A DNA stretch of 64,000 nt from a virus (IMGVR_UViG_3300025084_000011:19534-83533), one strand, 5' to 3'. Positions 42,461 to 55,286 are shown, counted from the first letter of the stretch. Notes: generated by a model from the sequence alone, not told the origin. Numbers and translations: made by a program.

Positions 42461-42500
42461 TAGGTTCACGTCCGAGTTCCCCAGTGAAAAGGTGCATTAT

Positions 42501-42508
42501 TCTAAATA
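42501..42508 (+). promoter_or_regulatory. Late promoter (TCTAAATA) for g18, inside a predicted hairpin
   Basis: Intergenic TAAATA flanked by inverted repeats. Confidence 0.7.
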
Positions 42509-42548
42509 ATAATAGCATCCATTGAACTTCACAGGAGAACCAAGCAAG

Positions 42549-45353
42549 ATGGCCAACACACAGATTTCACCAGGTGTATTGGTTCAGGAAAGAGATCTTA
42601 CTAACACTATTAACGCAACGATCGATAACGTTGGCGCTATTGTTGGTACTTTTTCCCAAGGACCCGTTGAAGAGATCGTAAGCATCTCTTCCGAAAGAGA
42701 ACTCATTCAAGTATTTGGTGAGCCAAACGAGCAAAACTACGAATATTGGTTTAGTGTCGCACAGTTTATGCTGTATGGCGGTACCTGTAAGGTAGTCCGT
42801 GCAGACAACTCTGCATTGAAGAACGCGATTGACACTGCAATCTTTACGCAGACAATCTTCTCAGCAGTTGACGTTACGTTGTCTGTTCAGAACGCTACTG
42901 GATTTGATGTCAACGATTTGCTGCTGATTGACGCAGAACTTCTGTCAGTCACTGCTATCACAGGTAACGATCTAGATGTTCTCCGTGGTCAGAACGCTAC
43001 CGCCAACACGTCACACGCTGGTGGTTCACAGATCACCCAGATCAAGACAGTCTCTGGTGCAACTTCACCCCTTAACCAAGGTGGTACGCTTGCTGCTAGT
43101 GCTACTACACTCACCGTTACTTCTAACGCTGCACTCACCGCTGTAACGAACTCATACATCCAAGTGGGTGATGAGATCCTGCAAGTTACTGGTATTTCTG
43201 GTAACGATCTTACCGTTAGTCGCGCACAACTTGGTTCAACTGCAACTGCTCATACTGATGCAACTGCTGTTAACCTGTTAGTTGTTAACGTCAACCAGAC
43301 CAGAATTAACGAGCAAACCAGCACTGGTGTTACTCCTCCTAAGATCAATAACATTGATACTTACGAAGCAACCACCGAGTATGCTGCCAACAACTGGAAG
43401 TTTGCTGCACGTACTCCTGGTACTTATGGTAACAGCATTCGCGTCGTAATGACTGATGCTGGTCCTGATCAAGTTCTGTTCCTTTCCGAGCCTGGTCCTT
43501 CTGCTGCTGAGTGGCAGATGCTTCCTGGTAAGCACATCTCTTTCTCTGCCTCTTCGATGCAGGGTCAGATTTTCAGTTACTCCTTGGTTCTTGAACTCAA
43601 AGCAGGCGCTGACCTGGTTGGTAAGTTCAAAGCAGATAACTTCTTTACTGCTGACAGTGGTAACGTCACTGGACGTATCCTCGCATACGAACCCAAGACT
43701 CGTACACTCGAACTGACTGTTGATTCTTCTGCTTCTGGTCACATCGATGTCGATATGGTTCTCACCGAACTTGCCGATAACGGTGGTTCACCTGGTTCTG
43801 CAACTGGTAACACCGCTAAGCCTACTTTGGTTCAGCGTCGTCTTACTGTTGTTAACGATGAAGGCGCAACTGCTTTCAGCAAGAACATCGTAATCAAAGA
43901 TTCCAGCACACTCAACGGTGTCATCAACGATGGCGACAATGTTACTATTCTTTCTACCGAAAGTGAGTACATTTCCAGAGTGTATGGAAACAATCAGAAG
44001 TGGTCAAGTCTAGCACCACGTCCTGGTACTAGTGTATGGGCAACTGAGCGTGGTGGTTTCCGCGACTTGTTCCATATCTTGGTTCTGGATGGCGACGGTG
44101 GTATCACTGGTACCCCTGGTGCAATTCTTGAAAAGTTCACTGATGTGTCCAAAGCAGCAGATGCTAAGACACCCCAAGGTTCTACCCTGTATTACAAGGA
44201 TGTCATTAAGGCACAGTCCGAGTACATCTTCTGGGGTTCCCACGAAAATACACGCATCTTCGACATTAATCCTTCACTGACAGGTGACATGGGAGATAAC
44301 GTGTTGAACAAGAAGTTTGACTTGTTCAAGAATGACTACTCCATCCTTTCCTTGGATGATCCTACTGGCACAAGTCTGCTGGCACAACCTCTGGTTAACA
44401 CCAAGAACACCTCTACCTTGAAGTATCAACTTCGCGGTGGTGCTGATGGTTATAGTGCTGAGCGTGACAAGTTGTTCGATTCTTACGATCTGTTCTCTGA
44501 TCCTGAGACCGAAGAAATTGATTATGTGATCATGGGACCTGCAATGAGCGACGGTGTTGACTCTGTTGCCAAGGCACAGAAGATGATCGACATTGCCGAG
44601 GTTCGCCAAGACTGTCTCGCATTCGTTTCTGCCCCTCGCGATGCCATCATTGGTGTTGCTAGCAGCAGAGAGATTGTTAGCAAGACTGTTGAATTCTTTG
44701 ATCAACTGTCTTCTAGTTCCTACGTTGTCTTTGACAACAACTACAAGTACATCTATGACAAGTACAACGACGCCTACCGTTACGTTCCTTTGAACGCTGA
44801 CATCGCTGGTCTCGTTCTTGACACTGCTGTTGAAGCAGAACCCTGGTTCTCTCCTGCTGGTTTCACCAGAGGTCAGATCCGTAACGCTGTCAAACTTGCA
44901 TACTCTCCTCTGAAAGAAGAGAGAGATTCACTCTATGCTGCACGAATCAACCCAGTTGTTGCTTTCCCTGGCGAAGGCATTGTACTCTTCGGAGACAAGA
45001 CTGGCATGGCAACTGCATCTGCATTCGATCGTATCAACGTTCGCCGTCTCTTCCTGGTAATCGAAAGAGCAATTAGTGATGCTGCTAAGAATCAACTGTT
45101 TGAAATCAACGATGAGTTCACTCGTCAGTCTTTCAACGACATTGTTGATCCTTATCTCAGAGGTGTTCAATCACGTCGTGGTGTTGAAGATTATCTAGTT
45201 GTTTGCGATGCAACCAACAACCCTGATGATGCTATTGATCGTGGTGAGTTCTTCGCTGAGATCTTCGTGAAGCCCACGCGCTCCATCAACTTCATCACAC
45301 TTCGCTTCACTGCTACTCGCACTGGCGCATCCTTCGCTGAAATCGTAGGTTGA
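42549..45353 (+). CDS. g18: Tail sheath protein gp18 (934 aa, with insertions)
   Basis: QISPGVLVQERDLT; WFSPAGFTRG; FDRINVRRLF; FVKPTRSINFITLRF; RBS AGGAGA at 42533-42538. Confidence 0.95.
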   Translation: MANTQISPGVLVQERDLTNTINATIDNVGAIVGTFSQGPVEEIVSISSERELIQVFGEPNEQNYEYWFSVAQFMLYGGTCKVVRADNSALKNAIDTAIFTQTIFSAVDVTLSVQNATGFDVNDLLLIDAELLSVTAITGNDLDVLRGQNATANTSHAGGSQITQIKTVSGATSPLNQGGTLAASATTLTVTSNAALTAVTNSYIQVGDEILQVTGISGNDLTVSRAQLGSTATAHTDATAVNLLVVNVNQTRINEQTSTGVTPPKINNIDTYEATTEYAANNWKFAARTPGTYGNSIRVVMTDAGPDQVLFLSEPGPSAAEWQMLPGKHISFSASSMQGQIFSYSLVLELKAGADLVGKFKADNFFTADSGNVTGRILAYEPKTRTLELTVDSSASGHIDVDMVLTELADNGGSPGSATGNTAKPTLVQRRLTVVNDEGATAFSKNIVIKDSSTLNGVINDGDNVTILSTESEYISRVYGNNQKWSSLAPRPGTSVWATERGGFRDLFHILVLDGDGGITGTPGAILEKFTDVSKAADAKTPQGSTLYYKDVIKAQSEYIFWGSHENTRIFDINPSLTGDMGDNVLNKKFDLFKNDYSILSLDDPTGTSLLAQPLVNTKNTSTLKYQLRGGADGYSAERDKLFDSYDLFSDPETEEIDYVIMGPAMSDGVDSVAKAQKMIDIAEVRQDCLAFVSAPRDAIIGVASSREIVSKTVEFFDQLSSSSYVVFDNNYKYIYDKYNDAYRYVPLNADIAGLVLDTAVEAEPWFSPAGFTRGQIRNAVKLAYSPLKEERDSLYAARINPVVAFPGEGIVLFGDKTGMATASAFDRINVRRLFLVIERAISDAAKNQLFEINDEFTRQSFNDIVDPYLRGVQSRRGVEDYLVVCDATNNPDDAIDRGEFFAEIFVKPTRSINFITLRFTATRTGASFAEIVG

Positions 45354-48774: not shown

Positions 48775-49797
48775 ATGTCTGACAAGATTGAAACAACACT
48801 AGATGAATCGAGCGTCACTGCTGGCGCTAAGGCAGCAGATCCTCAGGGCAAATTGTCCGATGAAGGTAGCGGTCTCGGCGGCGTACAGGATCTGGGAGGA
48901 CCAACCCCTCAGAACTCGAAGCCTGATGACGAAAGTAACAAGTACAAAGTCATCGGTAAGAGTGCATCTGCACCTACCACAAAACCTTCTGATGCATCTG
49001 CATCCCAAGGCGGTTCCATTAAAAAGGAAGATGCCGAGGTAGAAGGTGAAGAAGTGATTGCTGAGGAAGAAGTAGTCGAAACAATGACTATCGATCTTTC
49101 CGCTGATGTTGCTGCTCTGACCGAAGGTGAAGACCTGAGCGAAGAGTTCAAGCAGAAAGCAGCAACCATCTTTGAAGCGGCAGTTGTTTCCCGCCTCAAT
49201 GAAGAACTGAATCGTATCCATGGTGATTACGCTAAGGTTCTTGAAGAAGAAATTGAAACCGTCAAGTCTCAACTTGCCGAACAAGTAGACGAGTATCTGT
49301 CGTTTGCTGTCAGCAAGTGGGCTAAGGACAACACGCTCGCCATTGAGCACGGTATCAAAACCGAAATGGCAGAGAGTGTTCTGACTGGTCTCAAACAGGT
49401 TTTCGTCGAGAATTTCATTGATCTTCCCGATGAGAAAGTTGACTTGGTTGACGAAATGACCGAGCAACTTGATATTATGCAGACTAAACTCAACGAACAG
49501 ATCGAAGAGAACGTTGACCTCTCGAAAGAGGTTGGCGGTTATATCAAGAATGGGATTGTGAGCGAACTGAGCGAAGGACTGTCACTTTCACAACGTGAAA
49601 AGTTGGCATCTCTTGCTGAGGGAGTTGAGTTTGATGATGAAGAATCCTTCCGTGGGAAGGTTACGACACTTCGTGAGTCGTATTTCTCTACCAAGCCCGA
49701 AGTGACTACTGTCACCGAAGACGTTCAGGTTGAGAACGAGGTCGTAGGTGAGGCAATGTCCCACTACGTCCAAGCACTTTCCCGCTGGGCTAAGTGA
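48775..49797 (+). CDS. g22: Prohead core scaffold protein gp22
   Basis: LSEEFKQKAATIFEAAV, EKLASLAEGVEF, TLRESYF; RBS AAGGAG. Confidence 0.93.
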   Translation: MSDKIETTLDESSVTAGAKAADPQGKLSDEGSGLGGVQDLGGPTPQNSKPDDESNKYKVIGKSASAPTTKPSDASASQGGSIKKEDAEVEGEEVIAEEEVVETMTIDLSADVAALTEGEDLSEEFKQKAATIFEAAVVSRLNEELNRIHGDYAKVLEEEIETVKSQLAEQVDEYLSFAVSKWAKDNTLAIEHGIKTEMAESVLTGLKQVFVENFIDLPDEKVDLVDEMTEQLDIMQTKLNEQIEENVDLSKEVGGYIKNGIVSELSEGLSLSQREKLASLAEGVEFDDEESFRGKVTTLRESYFSTKPEVTTVTEDVQVENEVVGEAMSHYVQALSRWAK

Positions 49798-49839: not shown

Positions 49840-51186
49840 ATGTTCAATTCCGAATCTTTGCAGGAGAAGTGGGCACCCATTCTGGAACATTCTGAGATCT
49901 CTAACATCTCTGATAAGTACAGAAAGGCCGTCACCTCCATCCTGCTCGAAAACCAAGAGAAATTCCTCCGTGAGGAATCTGGAATGCTCAACGAAGCATC
50001 CCCAACGATGTCTGCTGGCACAGCAGGTTTCTCTGGTAGCAGCACCGCCACAGGTCCTGTTGCAGGTTTCGACCCTGTTCTGATCAGTCTGATCAGACGC
50101 TCCATGCCCAAGTTGATCGCCTATGATATTGCTGGCGTTCAACCGATGACTGGACCTACTGGTCTCATCTTTGCCATGCGTTCACGCTATGGCACTAACC
50201 GTACTGCTGGCGCTGAGTCCTTCTTCAATGAGGCGGACACAGAGTTCTCTGCTGAGAACGCAGCATCGAACCTCGGTCGCACCGCTCAGAGTGGAAGCAA
50301 CCCTGGTCTGCTGAACGACAGCGGCACCTACACCGTCTCTGACGGTATGCCGACTGCTGAGAGTGAGGCACTGGGCGATGCCGCTGGCAACGCCTTCGCA
50401 GAAATGAACTTCTCGATCGAGAAGGTCACTGTGACTGCCAAGTCACGCGCTCTGAAAGCAGAGTATTCGCTCGAACTCGCCCAAGACCTGAAAGCAGTTC
50501 ATGGTCTTGATGCTGAATCTGAGCTTGCCAACATCCTCTCAACAGAGGTTCTTGCCGAGATCAACCGCGAGGTGGTACGTACCGTCTATCGCATTGCTCG
50601 CCCTGGCGCTCAGAACAACACAGCAACTGCTGGCGTATTTGACCTTGACGTTGATTCCAACGGTCGCTGGTCAGTTGAGAAGTTCAAAGGACTCCTCTTC
50701 CAAATCGAACGCGATATGAACGCGATTGGTCACGAGACTCGTCGTGGAAAGGGTAACATCCTCATCTGTTCTGCTGACGTTGCTTCGGCACTGTCCATGG
50801 CAGGTGTTCTGGATTACACCCCTGCTCTCTCTGGTAACAGCAACTTGCTTCCAGACGACAACAGCAGCACACTGGCAGGCACCCTGAACGGTCGCATCAA
50901 GGTCTATGTTGACCCTTATTCCGCTAACGTAAGTGATCGTCACTTCTACGTTGCTGGTTATAAAGGTTCTAGCGCCTATGATGCTGGACTCTTCTACTGC
51001 CCATATGTGCCCCTGCAAATGGTTCGCGCCGTTGGTCAGGACACATTCCAGCCCAAGATCGGCTTCAAGACCCGCTACGGCATGGTCGCTAACCCATTCG
51101 CAGAAGGAACAACACAGGGGAGTGGTGCTCTTACTGCAAATGCTAACCGCTACTACCGTCGTGTGCTGGTTGACAACCTCATGTGA
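49840..51186 (+). CDS. g23: Major capsid protein gp23
   Basis: DPVLISLIRR, GVQPMTGPTGLIFAMR, KSRALKAEYSLELAQDLKAVHGLDAE, FQPKIGFKTRYG. Confidence 0.98.
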   Translation: MFNSESLQEKWAPILEHSEISNISDKYRKAVTSILLENQEKFLREESGMLNEASPTMSAGTAGFSGSSTATGPVAGFDPVLISLIRRSMPKLIAYDIAGVQPMTGPTGLIFAMRSRYGTNRTAGAESFFNEADTEFSAENAASNLGRTAQSGSNPGLLNDSGTYTVSDGMPTAESEALGDAAGNAFAEMNFSIEKVTVTAKSRALKAEYSLELAQDLKAVHGLDAESELANILSTEVLAEINREVVRTVYRIARPGAQNNTATAGVFDLDVDSNGRWSVEKFKGLLFQIERDMNAIGHETRRGKGNILICSADVASALSMAGVLDYTPALSGNSNLLPDDNSSTLAGTLNGRIKVYVDPYSANVSDRHFYVAGYKGSSAYDAGLFYCPYVPLQMVRAVGQDTFQPKIGFKTRYGMVANPFAEGTTQGSGALTANANRYYRRVLVDNLM

Positions 51187-51210: not shown

Positions 51211-51234
51211 AGGACCCCATCGGGGTCCTTTTTT
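51211..51234 (+). terminator. Rho-independent terminator after g23
   Basis: AGGACCCC-ATC-GGGGTCCT followed by TTTTT. Confidence 0.88.
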
Positions 51235-51282: not shown

Positions 51283-51311
51283 TTGGCACTTATGTTAAAT
51301 AGAATTATACT
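51283..51311 (+). promoter_or_regulatory. Sigma70-type (early/middle) promoter TTGGCA-N17-TATACT
   Basis: -35 at 51283-51288, -10 at 51306-51311; an embedded GTTAAATA (51294-51301) could be a tandem late promoter. Confidence 0.7.
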
Positions 51312-51324
51312 GAACTTGACTCCC

Positions 51325-51492
51325 ATGCCAAGGTCCACCATGTTGAAGACCGATCTGCTTGCCAGATTATACAAAGAGAAAACCAAATTATACGAAGGCG
51401 AGTTTCGGGAGGAACAAACTGAGGAATGGCATCACGGTGCCCACTTCGCGTATAGTAGACTATTGGATATCATTAGCGAGTACCGACAATGA
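51325..51492 (+). CDS. Hypothetical protein (55 aa; start MPRSTM)
   Basis: First ATG downstream of the promoter. Confidence 0.65.
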   Translation: MPRSTMLKTDLLARLYKEKTKLYEGEFREEQTEEWHHGAHFAYSRLLDIISEYRQ

Positions 51493-51611
51493 AAGACCTT
51501 GACTTCATCGATGACCTGTTGACCATGCCCGAAGAACCTTCAAAATCTAAAAACATCACTGATGCTGATGCCAAAGACTGGGAAGACTTCTGGAATGGTG
51601 AAGAAGAATAA
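51489..51611 (+). CDS. Small acidic hypothetical protein (40 aa, not in ORF track)
   Basis: MKDLDFIDDLL...DWEDFWNGEEE; ATGA overlap. Confidence 0.55.
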   Translation: MKDLDFIDDLLTMPEEPSKSKNITDADAKDWEDFWNGEEE

Positions 51612-51631
51612 ACCATAACCCCCTTAATGTG

Positions 51632-51733
51632 ATGCTATTTGGAACTACGGCTGCACAACAACTGTTAACTTTCGGTTGTACCTTTGTTATAGCAACAGTA
51701 TACATTGTGGTAATCACATGTAGGGACCATTGA
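51632..51733 (+). CDS. Possible 33-aa membrane peptide (not in ORF track)
   Basis: MLFGTTAAQQLLTFGCTFVIATVYIVVITCRDH; fills the gap before the g3 leader. Confidence 0.35.
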   Translation: MLFGTTAAQQLLTFGCTFVIATVYIVVITCRDH

Positions 51734-51735
51734 AT

Positions 51736-51776
51736 TGAGTATGTTCCTATAAATAATTAAAACAGGAACATACTCA
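51736..51776 (+). promoter_or_regulatory. RBS-sequestering hairpin with late promoter TATAAATA (51748-51755) at its loop, upstream of g3
   Basis: Perfect 13-bp inverted repeat TGAGTATGTTCCT / AGGAACATACTCA. Confidence 0.85.
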
Positions 51777-52339
51777 TGGCATCATACGGAGGCAAGGACC
51801 AGACATCGCTCTGGTCTAAGCAATTAGATAACAGGAACTTCCTGTCGCCAATTGGATTTAAGATGCTACTGGAACAGTTTCCAAAGGTAGTTTACTTTGC
51901 ACAATCCGCTAATATTCCTGGTATCGGACTGAATACCATCGAGCAACCTACTATGCTGGGACGTGTGATCCCGTGGGAAGCACATGGTCTGAACTATGAA
52001 CCATTCAACTTGACGTTCCTTGTTGATGAGGATCTAGAAAACTATCTCATCCTACACAACTGGATGCGATCGATTGCAGGTGGCGATGCGTTTGAAGAAC
52101 GTGCTACTTACATGGATGATTACACTGTGACTTGTGATGCGTCACTAGCAATCATGAATAGTAATATGAGAACTAACTTCTTTGTCAACTTCAAAGATAT
52201 ATTCCCTGTCTCATTGAATGCATTAGAATTTAATGCTACAATTGATGGTACTGAGTATGCCACAGCAACTGCTGAGTTTAGGTATACTACTTACAACATA
52301 CAAAACCTTGAAGGTGGGCGGAGGAAGAATCTGAAATGA
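51776..52339 (+). CDS. g3: Tail completion/tube terminator gp3
   Basis: NRNFLSPIGFK, YFAQSANIPGI, FLVDEDLENY..HNW, F.DIFPVSL..LEF. Confidence 0.85.
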   Translation: MASYGGKDQTSLWSKQLDNRNFLSPIGFKMLLEQFPKVVYFAQSANIPGIGLNTIEQPTMLGRVIPWEAHGLNYEPFNLTFLVDEDLENYLILHNWMRSIAGGDAFEERATYMDDYTVTCDASLAIMNSNMRTNFFVNFKDIFPVSLNALEFNATIDGTEYATATAEFRYTTYNIQNLEGGRRKNLK

Positions 52340-52758
52340 ATCTAGACCAAATTCGTGACATGTGGAAAGAGGATTGCATCATTGATCAAAATGATTTAGA
52401 CACTGAGAACTTCAAGTGTACTGTGATCCACGAAAAATATTTGAATATCTGGTCTCATTTTAAACTGATGGCATCTGATGCTGACACCAAAGGTCGGATG
52501 CTATACAAAGCAAAGTTTGAATACTACTCAGGCAAAGCACCTGCCAAGGTGTACGCAGAGAAACCTTTCAATCACAAGGTACTCAAAACTGATATCAACA
52601 CTTACATCTGGGCAGATGATGAGTGGTTGAAAAACAAGCAGAAGATTGACTACCTTGATACTTGTATAAATTACTTAGAGATGATTCTTAAACAGTGTTC
52701 CTCACGAGGGTTCCAGATTAAGAATTACATTGATCTAAGGAGACATGGTGATTACTAA
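52336..52758 (+). CDS. uvsY: Recombination mediator UvsY
   Basis: W..D..ID, H.KYL, YYSGKA...Y.EKPF.HKVLK.D, RGFQIKN.I; precedes uvsW. Confidence 0.88.
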   Translation: MNLDQIRDMWKEDCIIDQNDLDTENFKCTVIHEKYLNIWSHFKLMASDADTKGRMLYKAKFEYYSGKAPAKVYAEKPFNHKVLKTDINTYIWADDEWLKNKQKIDYLDTCINYLEMILKQCSSRGFQIKNYIDLRRHGDY

Positions 52759-54214
52759 GATTGAAAAAAAGAATGAAGTCTACCTCAAAGTAACAACAGA
52801 ACCCCATGTTCATCAGGAACTGAGTGATCACTTTCAATTTGAAGTGCCACAAGCAAAGTTCATGCCACAGTATCAGAAGTGGAAATGGGATGGAAAGATC
52901 CGTTTGTATTCACCAGCAACAGGTGAGATATATGCGGGTCTTTTTGATTATCTAACTGAGTTCTTAGAACAACGTGGTTACGATTGGGAAGTTGAGGACA
53001 GTAAGTTTTATGGAAAACCAAATGAATGTGAACTACTCATATCTCCTGAGGCAACTGCGGGGTATGTTAGATCTTTGGGTCTACCTTTCAAAGTCAGAGA
53101 TTACCAGTTACGAGCAATTTACCAAGCACTTAGGTACAATCGGAGACTTCTACTATCCCCGACAGGATCGGGAAAATCTCTAATCATCTATGCACTGGTG
53201 CGATGGCATCTGGGGATGGATCGTCAGGTTCTTATCATTGTTCCTACTGTCTCACTAGTGGAGCAGATGTATAAGGATTTCCAACAGTATGGATGGAGAG
53301 CAGATGCATATGTACATAAGATCATGGGTGGCACTGAGAGGTACGTAGATGCCCCTGTGGTAGTGTCTACCTGGCAGAGTATATACAAAGAACCTAAAAA
53401 GTTCTTTAACCGTTTTGATGTCATCATTGGTGATGAGGCACACCTATACAAAGCAAAGAGTTTGTCAGGTATCTTGACTAAGTGTCATGATGCAAAATAT
53501 CGTATTGGTCTCACAGGTACTCTCGATGGTTTGCATACCCATCAGTTAGTGCTAGAAGGATTGTTTGGTAAATGTGAACAAGTTACCAAGACAGCAGACC
53601 TTATGAAGAAAGGTCATCTCACTAAACTTAAAGTAAATATTCTCTTATTAAAACATGGGTACGTTCCCTTTGATGACTACCAACAGGAGATGGATTACAT
53701 AGTAAGTCATCCTAAGAGAAACAATCTGATCACAAACCTTGCGAAAGATCTGAGTGGCAATACTCTGATCCTATTCAACTACGTAGAGAAGCATGGGGAA
53801 CCATTGCATGACCTGCTAAATACTAAGGTGAAGGAAGGTCGCAAGGTCTTCTTCATACACGGTGGTATTGATGCCTATGATCGTGAAGAAGCACGATCTA
53901 TATGTGAGACAGAAAAGGATGCAATCATTGTTGCATCGTATGGAACTTTCTCTACTGGTATTAATATCAAAAACTTACATAATGTGATCTTCGCTAGTCC
54001 CTCCAAGTCCAGAGTCAGAAACCTACAATCTATTGGTCGTGTACTCAGGAAAGGAGATAACAAAGCGCAAGCAGTTCTATACGATATTGCAGACCACTGT
54101 GCGAGAGGATCCAAAAGTAATTACACCCTTCGTCATCTTGCTGAAAGAATCAAGATATATCAAGAAGAAAAATTTAATTACGAAATTAAGGAGATCAAAT
54201 TGACTCATGATTAA
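52745..54214 (+). CDS. uvsW: SF2 helicase UvsW
   Basis: SPTGSGKS, DEAH, GLTGT, STGINI, QSIGRVLR. Confidence 0.96.
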   Translation: MVITKIEKKNEVYLKVTTEPHVHQELSDHFQFEVPQAKFMPQYQKWKWDGKIRLYSPATGEIYAGLFDYLTEFLEQRGYDWEVEDSKFYGKPNECELLISPEATAGYVRSLGLPFKVRDYQLRAIYQALRYNRRLLLSPTGSGKSLIIYALVRWHLGMDRQVLIIVPTVSLVEQMYKDFQQYGWRADAYVHKIMGGTERYVDAPVVVSTWQSIYKEPKKFFNRFDVIIGDEAHLYKAKSLSGILTKCHDAKYRIGLTGTLDGLHTHQLVLEGLFGKCEQVTKTADLMKKGHLTKLKVNILLLKHGYVPFDDYQQEMDYIVSHPKRNNLITNLAKDLSGNTLILFNYVEKHGEPLHDLLNTKVKEGRKVFFIHGGIDAYDREEARSICETEKDAIIVASYGTFSTGINIKNLHNVIFASPSKSRVRNLQSIGRVLRKGDNKAQAVLYDIADHCARGSKSNYTLRHLAERIKIYQEEKFNYEIKEIKLTHD

Positions 54215-54776: not shown

Positions 54777-55286
54777 ATGTCATCCGTGAGTACCCTTATG
54801 TCTATGCTAATGCCACGGAAGAACGCCAAAAAGAAAGAACACTATGTAGATAACAAACAGTTCTTACATGAACTGATTATTTACCGTAACAAATGTGCAG
54901 TCGCCAAAGATAAAGGACTGTCCAAACCTCGTGTCTCTAATTACATTGGTGAATGCTTCCTTAAAATTGCAACCCACCTATCGTATCGTCCGAACTTCAT
55001 CAACTACATGTACCGAGAGGACATGATTGGTGATGGTATCGAGAATTGTATTCAATACATTCATAACTTTGATCCAGAGAAGTCTTCTAATCCGTTTGCA
55101 TACTTCACACAGATTGTATACTATGCATATCTAAGAAGGATTGCTAAGGAGAAGAGGCAGCAGGCAATTAGAGAGAAGATCCTAGAACGTAAGGGGTATG
55201 AGGAGGTTTTCCACACAGATGACCTTGACAATATCGCTGACATGAACTATATTAAGTCTCGTGTCGAGACCAATACGAGGTACTGA
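54777..55286 (+). CDS. g55: Late transcription sigma factor gp55 (true start may be a downstream Met)
   Basis: EHYVDNK.F, YIGECFLKIATHLSYRPNFINY, DPEKSSNPFAYFTQI.YYA.LRRI.KEK. Confidence 0.95.
   Translation: MSSVSTLMSMLMPRKNAKKKEHYVDNKQFLHELIIYRNKCAVAKDKGLSKPRVSNYIGECFLKIATHLSYRPNFINYMYREDMIGDGIENCIQYIHNFDPEKSSNPFAYFTQIVYYAYLRRIAKEKRQQAIREKILERKGYEEVFHTDDLDNIADMNYIKSRVETNTRY

Follow-up and report, generated by a model that had tools for sequence, protein, structure and literature searches.

The window analysed here makes up the 3'-terminal 64 kb of a viral contig of 83.5 kb, which has an estimated completeness of ~45%. The contig of origin is a T4-like marine cyanomyovirus. The best matches of its gp3 protein are found in the Synechococcus phages S-WAM1 (74%) and S-SZBM1 (63%) and in cyanophage P-RSM6 (58%), all of which belong to the Kyanoviridae. 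The whole gene order from g22 to g55 lies on the + strand, with three small open reading frames (ORFs) between the g23 terminator and g3 (Table 1). The tail completion gene g3 is followed on the same strand by uvsY, uvsW and g55, and no terminator intervenes between it and either these genes or the small non-structural ORFs that precede it.

Table 1. Features of the g22-g55 region (positions counted from the first letter of the window)
Feature	Position	Strand	Remarks
g22, scaffold	48775-49797	+	
g23, major capsid	49840-51186	+	
g23 intrinsic terminator	51211-51229 (stem), T-run to 51235	+	8-bp GC-rich stem; conserved in relatives
Upstream promoter block (candidate)	51283-51311	+	TTGGCA, 17-nt spacer, TATACT; predicted start near 51318
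Conserved TGTTAAATAG, late-like box	51293-51302	+	Within the spacer of the promoter block
Small ORF1	51340-51492	+	50 aa, PHROG 566; conserved in relatives
Small ORF2	51489-51611	+	40 aa, ends ...DWEDFWNGEEE
Small ORF3	51632-51733	+	33 aa, hydrophobic membrane-type peptide
5' arm of inverted repeat	51736-51748	+	TGAGTATGTTCCT; only on RNAs begun upstream
Late promoter box TATAAATA	51748-51755	+	In the loop; predicted late start ~51761
3' arm of inverted repeat	51764-51776	+	AGGAACATACTCA; AGGA ribosome site through A of g3 ATG
g3, tail completion and sheath stabiliser protein	51776-52339	+	187 aa
Candidate internal sigma70-type promoter	52214-52242	+	TTGAAT, 17-nt spacer, TGcTACAAT (extended -10); ~90 nt before uvsY
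uvsY ribosome site GGAGGA	52320-52325	+	In the 3' end of g3; conserved in 11/11 aligned lineages
uvsY	52336-52758	+	ATG overlaps the g3 stop as ATGA
uvsW	52745-54214	+	
147-aa ORF	between uvsW and g55	+	
g55, gp55-type late sigma	54777-55286	+	Match to PHROG 234 (late sigma transcription factor) with E = 5.5e-68

A search of the phage collection at the DNA level recovered nothing beyond one 120-bp match within g3, and relatives were therefore compared via the gp3 protein. This protein-guided comparison comprises 41 viral-contig loci and 42 metagenome loci. The start codon of g3 is secure: the relatives align from residue 1, or have one in-frame ATG at the equivalent spot.

Promoter block and small ORFs upstream of g3

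A preliminary description of this DNA had reported TTGGCA-N17-TATACT right after the g23 terminator, and the two hexamers are present at 51283-51288 and 51306-51311. The promoter block is conserved between flanks that vary, including the sequence on its 5' side. In nearly every lineage of the clade, TGTTAAATAG lies directly 3' of the g23 terminator and is followed 4-5 nt on by TATA(C/A)T; the equivalent of window positions 51293-51311 is found at 1772-1792 in L042. Two lineages, L017 and L053, keep the TTAAATA box and have no TATA(C/A)T. Conservation of the -35 hexamer (TTGGCA, GTGACA or ATGACA) is limited to the lineages of the window and of L009. Overall, the block looks like a sigma70 -10 box overlapping a late-like box, which together would drive the small ORFs. 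For the 'middle' genes of T4-like cyanophages, an overlap of early with late promoters has been put forward (PMC2984593). Since the upstream promoter overlaps the late-like TTAAATA box, it may not be purely early, and long RNAs reaching g3 may also be made late.

ORF3, which was absent from the preliminary description, displays coding-type conservation in L006 and L009. No terminator had been noticed downstream of the promoter block, and none is credible, although the scan does flag one weak hairpin (51658-51679) as the only terminator-like call between the block and g3. This hairpin lies inside ORF3 and is not conserved in relatives, and we rejected it as a terminator. As only 2 nt separate the end of ORF3 from the 5' arm of the inverted repeat at the g3 start, with no terminator in between, the ORF3 transcript must at least enter that hairpin, and nothing in the sequence suggests that it stops there.

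The inverted repeat and late box at the g3 start

The perfect 13-bp inverted repeat described earlier, which takes in an AGGA motif and the A of the g3 ATG, proved correct in every coordinate. Its arms, TGAGTATGTTCCT and AGGAACATACTCA, are complementary at 13/13 positions and enclose a loop of 15 nt; the AGGA occupies 51764-51767 and the ATG 51776-51778. The late box that had been placed between the arms was likewise found, and the first T of TATAAATA is the final base of the 5' arm. Among the perfect inverted repeats of the 64-kb window that have a loop of 3-30 nt, this hairpin is the longest, and composition-matched shuffles predict ~0.1 inverted repeats of at least 13 bp per 64 kb. Taken alone, the hairpin has a folding energy of -17.1 kcal/mol. 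The 101-nt fold around it has a z-score of -2.65, and 0/200 shuffles fold as well.

With 3 copies in the window against 1.7 expected, the exact 8-mer TATAAATA shows no enrichment. The shorter sequence [C/A]TAAATA is present in 23 copies on the + strand and occurs 19-47 nt before nine start codons, mostly those of virion genes. It is this shorter sequence, and not the exact 8-mer, that counts as the late box of this phage. The late motif published for cyanomyoviruses is NATAAATA (PMC2984593). At g3 the distance from the late box to the ATG is 26 nt, and other late boxes lie at 27, 28 and 28 nt. The box of a T4 late promoter spans -13 to -6. By this spacing rule the g3 late start is predicted near 51761, which would give a leader of 15 nt. 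Because the 5' arm extends no further than the first base of TATAAATA, any start 3' of the box leaves the arm out.

The position of the hairpin right after the last small ORF, where it is the only strong structure between ORF3 and g3, could also mean that it mainly serves the messenger of the small ORFs, by stabilising its 3' end, by providing a processing site or by acting as a weak terminator lacking the U-run, with the masking of g3 as a by-product. The stem is, however, followed by TGGCATCATACGG and by no run of T (U in the RNA), even though a canonical terminator is used after g23, and the terminator scan does not call it as an intrinsic terminator. Its 13 bp also fall short of typical RNase III substrates, which are longer. 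Moreover, a role at the messenger end leaves unexplained why the 3' arm coincides with the ribosome site and AUG, and why a late box is looped out in two stem types. We consider this role quite improbable. A search of Rfam 15 assigned the hairpin to no family, the sole match being a chance-level snoRNA on the minus strand (17 bits vs a gathering score of 100).

Masking of the g3 start was expressed as an opening cost, the ensemble free energy needed to free positions -15 to +5 from pairing. At g3 this cost is 13.3 kcal/mol when 100 nt of upstream RNA are included, and 3.5-4.3 kcal/mol for the predicted late RNA. When the RNA begun upstream is modelled over 583 nt, the cost amounts to 17.6 kcal/mol, and the 13 stem pairs have pair probabilities of 0.8-1.0. 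The start regions adjoining g3 cost 5-12 kcal/mol to open. Across 14 pairs of late box and gene on the 83.5-kb contig, the difference between long and short RNA is 9.85 for g3 and ranges from -3.3 to +3.0 for the rest. When only the segment upstream of the predicted late start was replaced by dinucleotide shuffles, the observed occlusion was matched in 0/200 cases at g3 and in 82-191/200 at eight control late genes. A mask as a general feature of the late genes of this phage was rejected, g3 being the sole outlier among the 14. A hairpin around the late promoter of g18 (tail sheath, leader at 42476-42549) is likewise unremarkable in this test, with an opening cost of 10.1 vs 8.9 kcal/mol and 109/200 shuffles that equal it.

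We propose that g3 carries a translational mask of the T4 type with a late promoter nested inside it, and assign this reading a probability of roughly 0.6. RNA begun upstream, either at the promoter block and running through the three small ORFs or by read-through of the g23 terminator, would carry both arms and fold into the 13-bp hairpin of -17 kcal/mol, which would take up the g3 ribosome site together with the A of the AUG. With the start buried, 30S subunits could not load, and no gp3 would be made from the long RNA. When gp55 is active, RNA polymerase would start at ~51761, within the loop. The resulting late RNA, with its 15-nt leader devoid of the 5' arm, would leave the start region open and allow gp3 to be translated. 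Such a device would tie gp3 synthesis to the firing of the late promoter.

Stem variants and other g3 leaders

Covariation across cyanophage g3 leaders had been suggested as a check on the stem. The stem does covary in a sister lineage and is lost in more distant ones. It is unchanged in L001-L005 and L007, and near-identical relatives (97% gp3 identity) retain it. Single stem mismatches occur in L006, L008 and L046, accompanied by two extra pairs reaching into the box. In L009-L011, whose gp3 is 80% identical, the stem has another sequence, GGAGTATTTCTAT / ATAGATATACTCC, in an identical register: five base pairs are altered on both sides, and the box and its spacing are unchanged. The late box TATAAATA is invariant throughout L001-L011. 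Within alignment A1, 88% of the cells are paired and 1/500 shuffles does as well, and slid registers on the same alignment yield 0-1 pairs changed on both sides. The five compensations were all contributed by the one sister lineage, and few independent events are thus represented. The 3' arm of L009 has no Shine-Dalgarno motif. The conserved feature is the occlusion of the ribosome landing zone and not that of AGGA itself.

We also scanned viral contigs for the loop motif CTATAAATA-NN-TAAAA-N-AG. No new stem variants occurred among the matches listed, most of which are unrelated late promoters, and none of these matches (70 distinct sequences) revealed a similar leader outside g3 loci. The metagenome scan recovered minor stem variants only. 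With no further variants found, the covariation rests on two stem types.

Pairing in DNA instead of RNA offers another account of the conserved arms, as an operator for a dimeric DNA-binding protein or as a cruciform that modulates the g3 late promoter. G-U intermediates, which would discriminate RNA from DNA pairing, were not seen in the aligned stems. The Watson-Crick compensations fit both kinds of pairing alike, and the single mismatches of L006 (A-C) and L008 (C-A) are not wobble pairs on the sense RNA. For an operator, however, the half-sites differ at no fewer than 5 positions between lineages, so that the specificity of the protein would have to co-evolve with them, and the arm centres lie 28 bp apart and hence on different helix faces. 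Such arms are found at no other late promoter on the contig, and promoters of the T4 late type require the box alone. A DNA-level function strikes us as very improbable indeed.

The masking hairpin was also sought in more distant relatives. Its conservation across all cyanophage g3 leaders was rejected, as distant lineages are arranged otherwise; the 13-bp mask is, to judge from the leaders compared, lineage-specific. The g3 start of group B contigs (77% gp3 identity), S-WAM1 and S-SZBM1 is occluded by unrelated upstream sequences, with 0-18/200 shuffles reaching the same level. By the same shuffle test, significant occlusion of the g3 start is absent in L016, L017, L053, L050 and P-RSM6. In P-SSM7 (L209, ~1400-1489) a canonical GC-rich terminator directly precedes the g3 late box, which lies 28 nt before the ATG. 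In P-TIM40 and S-RIM2, g3 abuts the preceding ORF.

The ORF preceding g3 also differs among these lineages. A version of ORF3 with 59-63 aa and a charged tail is present in group B contigs, S-WAM1 and L016. In group B this homologous membrane-peptide ORF of 60 aa extends across the late box and a hairpin that is itself coding, and terminates as TAATG on the g3 ATG; in S-WAM1 the preceding ORF likewise crosses the late box and overlaps the g3 start by 11 nt. In L042 (2438-2465) and group B, a hairpin AGGAGA...CTCCT lies just 3' of the late box, ~20-40 nt before the g3 ATG and within the stretch that encodes the tail (RRRIE[D/E]LL) of the preceding ORF. One of its flanking pairs changes from A-T to C-G between S-WAM1 and group B, and the predicted late start in L042 and group B falls within its 5' arm.

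Translation of g3 is probably coupled to that of the preceding ORF in group B and S-WAM1, where the TAATG and the 11-nt overlap are classic coupling layouts, and this makes coupling a live rival in the window as well. An ORF that ends on the g3 ATG implies that long RNAs of those lineages do yield gp3. Here, ribosomes terminating on ORF3 of the long RNAs would melt the base of the stem and transiently expose the g3 start, so that a small amount of gp3, proportional to ORF3 translation, would be made before and alongside expression from the late promoter. Between the ORF3 stop and the 5' arm there are only 2 nt in the window and 0 nt in L009, an adjacency that genome compaction alone may explain. 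If the terminating ribosome holds the RNA single-stranded to 51743, the edge of its footprint, the opening cost drops from 13.6 to 5.6 kcal/mol; with the reach of the helicase only (~51738-51740), it stays at 9.5-10.9 kcal/mol and AGGA remains paired. The g3 ATG lies 43 nt past the ORF3 stop. ORF3 itself has no Shine-Dalgarno motif and its start region costs 12.1 kcal/mol to open, so few ribosomes may arrive at its end. On balance, we regard ribosome-gated expression of g3 in the window as unlikely.

A broader and likewise doubtful reading, to which we give some limited weight, treats the g3 locus of the clade as a series of interchangeable solutions, with the mask in the window possibly gated by ribosomes too. 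The shared problem may be the expression of a late virion gene from within a transcription unit that is not late and has no terminator to set the gene apart. The solutions may be a non-coding mask (window, L009), an ORF ending on the g3 ATG (group B, S-WAM1) or a terminator (P-SSM7). If this were true, early gp3 would be set by translation of the ORF3 peptide and would not be zero.

The proposed g3 mask among known systems

The core logic of the proposed mask, in which upstream RNA folds over the g3 start and a promoter in the loop provides RNA without the 5' arm, is supported at the level of sequence analysis: the helix includes the g3 ribosome site and a base of the start codon, and the late box is placed so that late RNA would lack the 5' strand. 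The preliminary description had seen in this arrangement a timing switch. Structure, energetics, covariation, late-box distance and the conserved promoter speak for that reading, while its timing is a deduction; from the sequence we infer where both transcripts start, that the upstream promoter fires early and that translation is affected. The transcriptome supplements of two published cyanophage studies contain no usable timing for g3, uvsY and uvsW.

The upstream transcript had also been thought to supply UvsY and UvsW. In favour of this, uvsY has its own conserved GGAGGA and is therefore translatable without translation of g3; against it stands the candidate promoter inside g3. In a comparison of synonymous sites among 18-19 diverged g3 sequences, an invariant cluster over codons 147-164 (52214-52267) coincides with the TTGAAT and TGcTACAAT elements. 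The codons AAT, GCT, GAT, GGT and TAT in this cluster are each invariant in 18/18 sequences, whereas the other Ala and Gly codons of g3 vary. The invariant sites suggest an internal promoter that could feed uvsY and uvsW independently.

The closest parallels to the g3 mask are the leaders of genes e, soc, 49 and I-TevI of T4. In these, a helix covers the Shine-Dalgarno sequence or AUG of the long RNAs made early or in the middle period, and late promoters just before the ribosome site give RNAs without the 5' strand of the helix; the leader helix represses gene e by ~100-fold (PMC3014915). Similarly, the g3 stem would bury the ribosome site and AUG, the TATAAATA promoter would drop the 5' strand, and the phage encodes a gp55-type sigma. 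Unlike in T4, the host is cyanobacterial and the phage belongs to the Kyanoviridae, and the mask at g3 is a prediction from sequence. The arrangement also differs in detail, since the g3 box sits within the loop and shares one base with the arm, and the stop of a small ORF is only 2 nt 5' of that arm. The masked gene is here the tail completion gene g3, which is not named among the masked genes in the review of T4 (PMC3014915).

Hairpins bearing TATAAATA have also been described in the leaders of Aeh1 mobE and of homing endonucleases from marine metagenomes ('fractured genes') (PMC2677866; PMC3014915). They share with g3 a hairpin with an embedded late box directly before the start codon. Unlike these portable and selfish nuclease cassettes, the device at g3 belongs to a core virion gene in a fixed syntenic position.

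Within the clade, group B and S-WAM1 share with the window the gene order, the small ORFs and a late box within ~45 nt of the g3 ATG. In contrast to these coupled loci, the preceding ORF of the window is truncated 43 nt before g3, and a non-coding 13-bp mask replaces the coding tail. The leader of P-SSM7 would address the same problem, the insulation of g3 from upstream transcription. Unlike the mask of the window, it stops that transcription, and its uvsY and uvsW must consequently rely on other promoters.

We found no published report of a mask with a nested late promoter at g3 in the literature. The mechanism has long been known from T4, and its occurrence at the g3 gene of cyanophages is, by this comparison, apparently new. 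What is gained is an extension and an experimental handle, the principle itself being textbook T4. T4-like cyanophages lack MotA and Asi (PMC2984593). Their temporal control is poorly understood, and the g3 locus offers a clean testable case that comes with natural compensatory variants and with sister lineages that solve the problem otherwise. If the proposed mask is real, post-transcriptional masking, and not transcription alone, would decide the timing of a core virion protein. The early, middle and late classes assigned to cyanophage genes at the transcript level need then not match the timing of their proteins.
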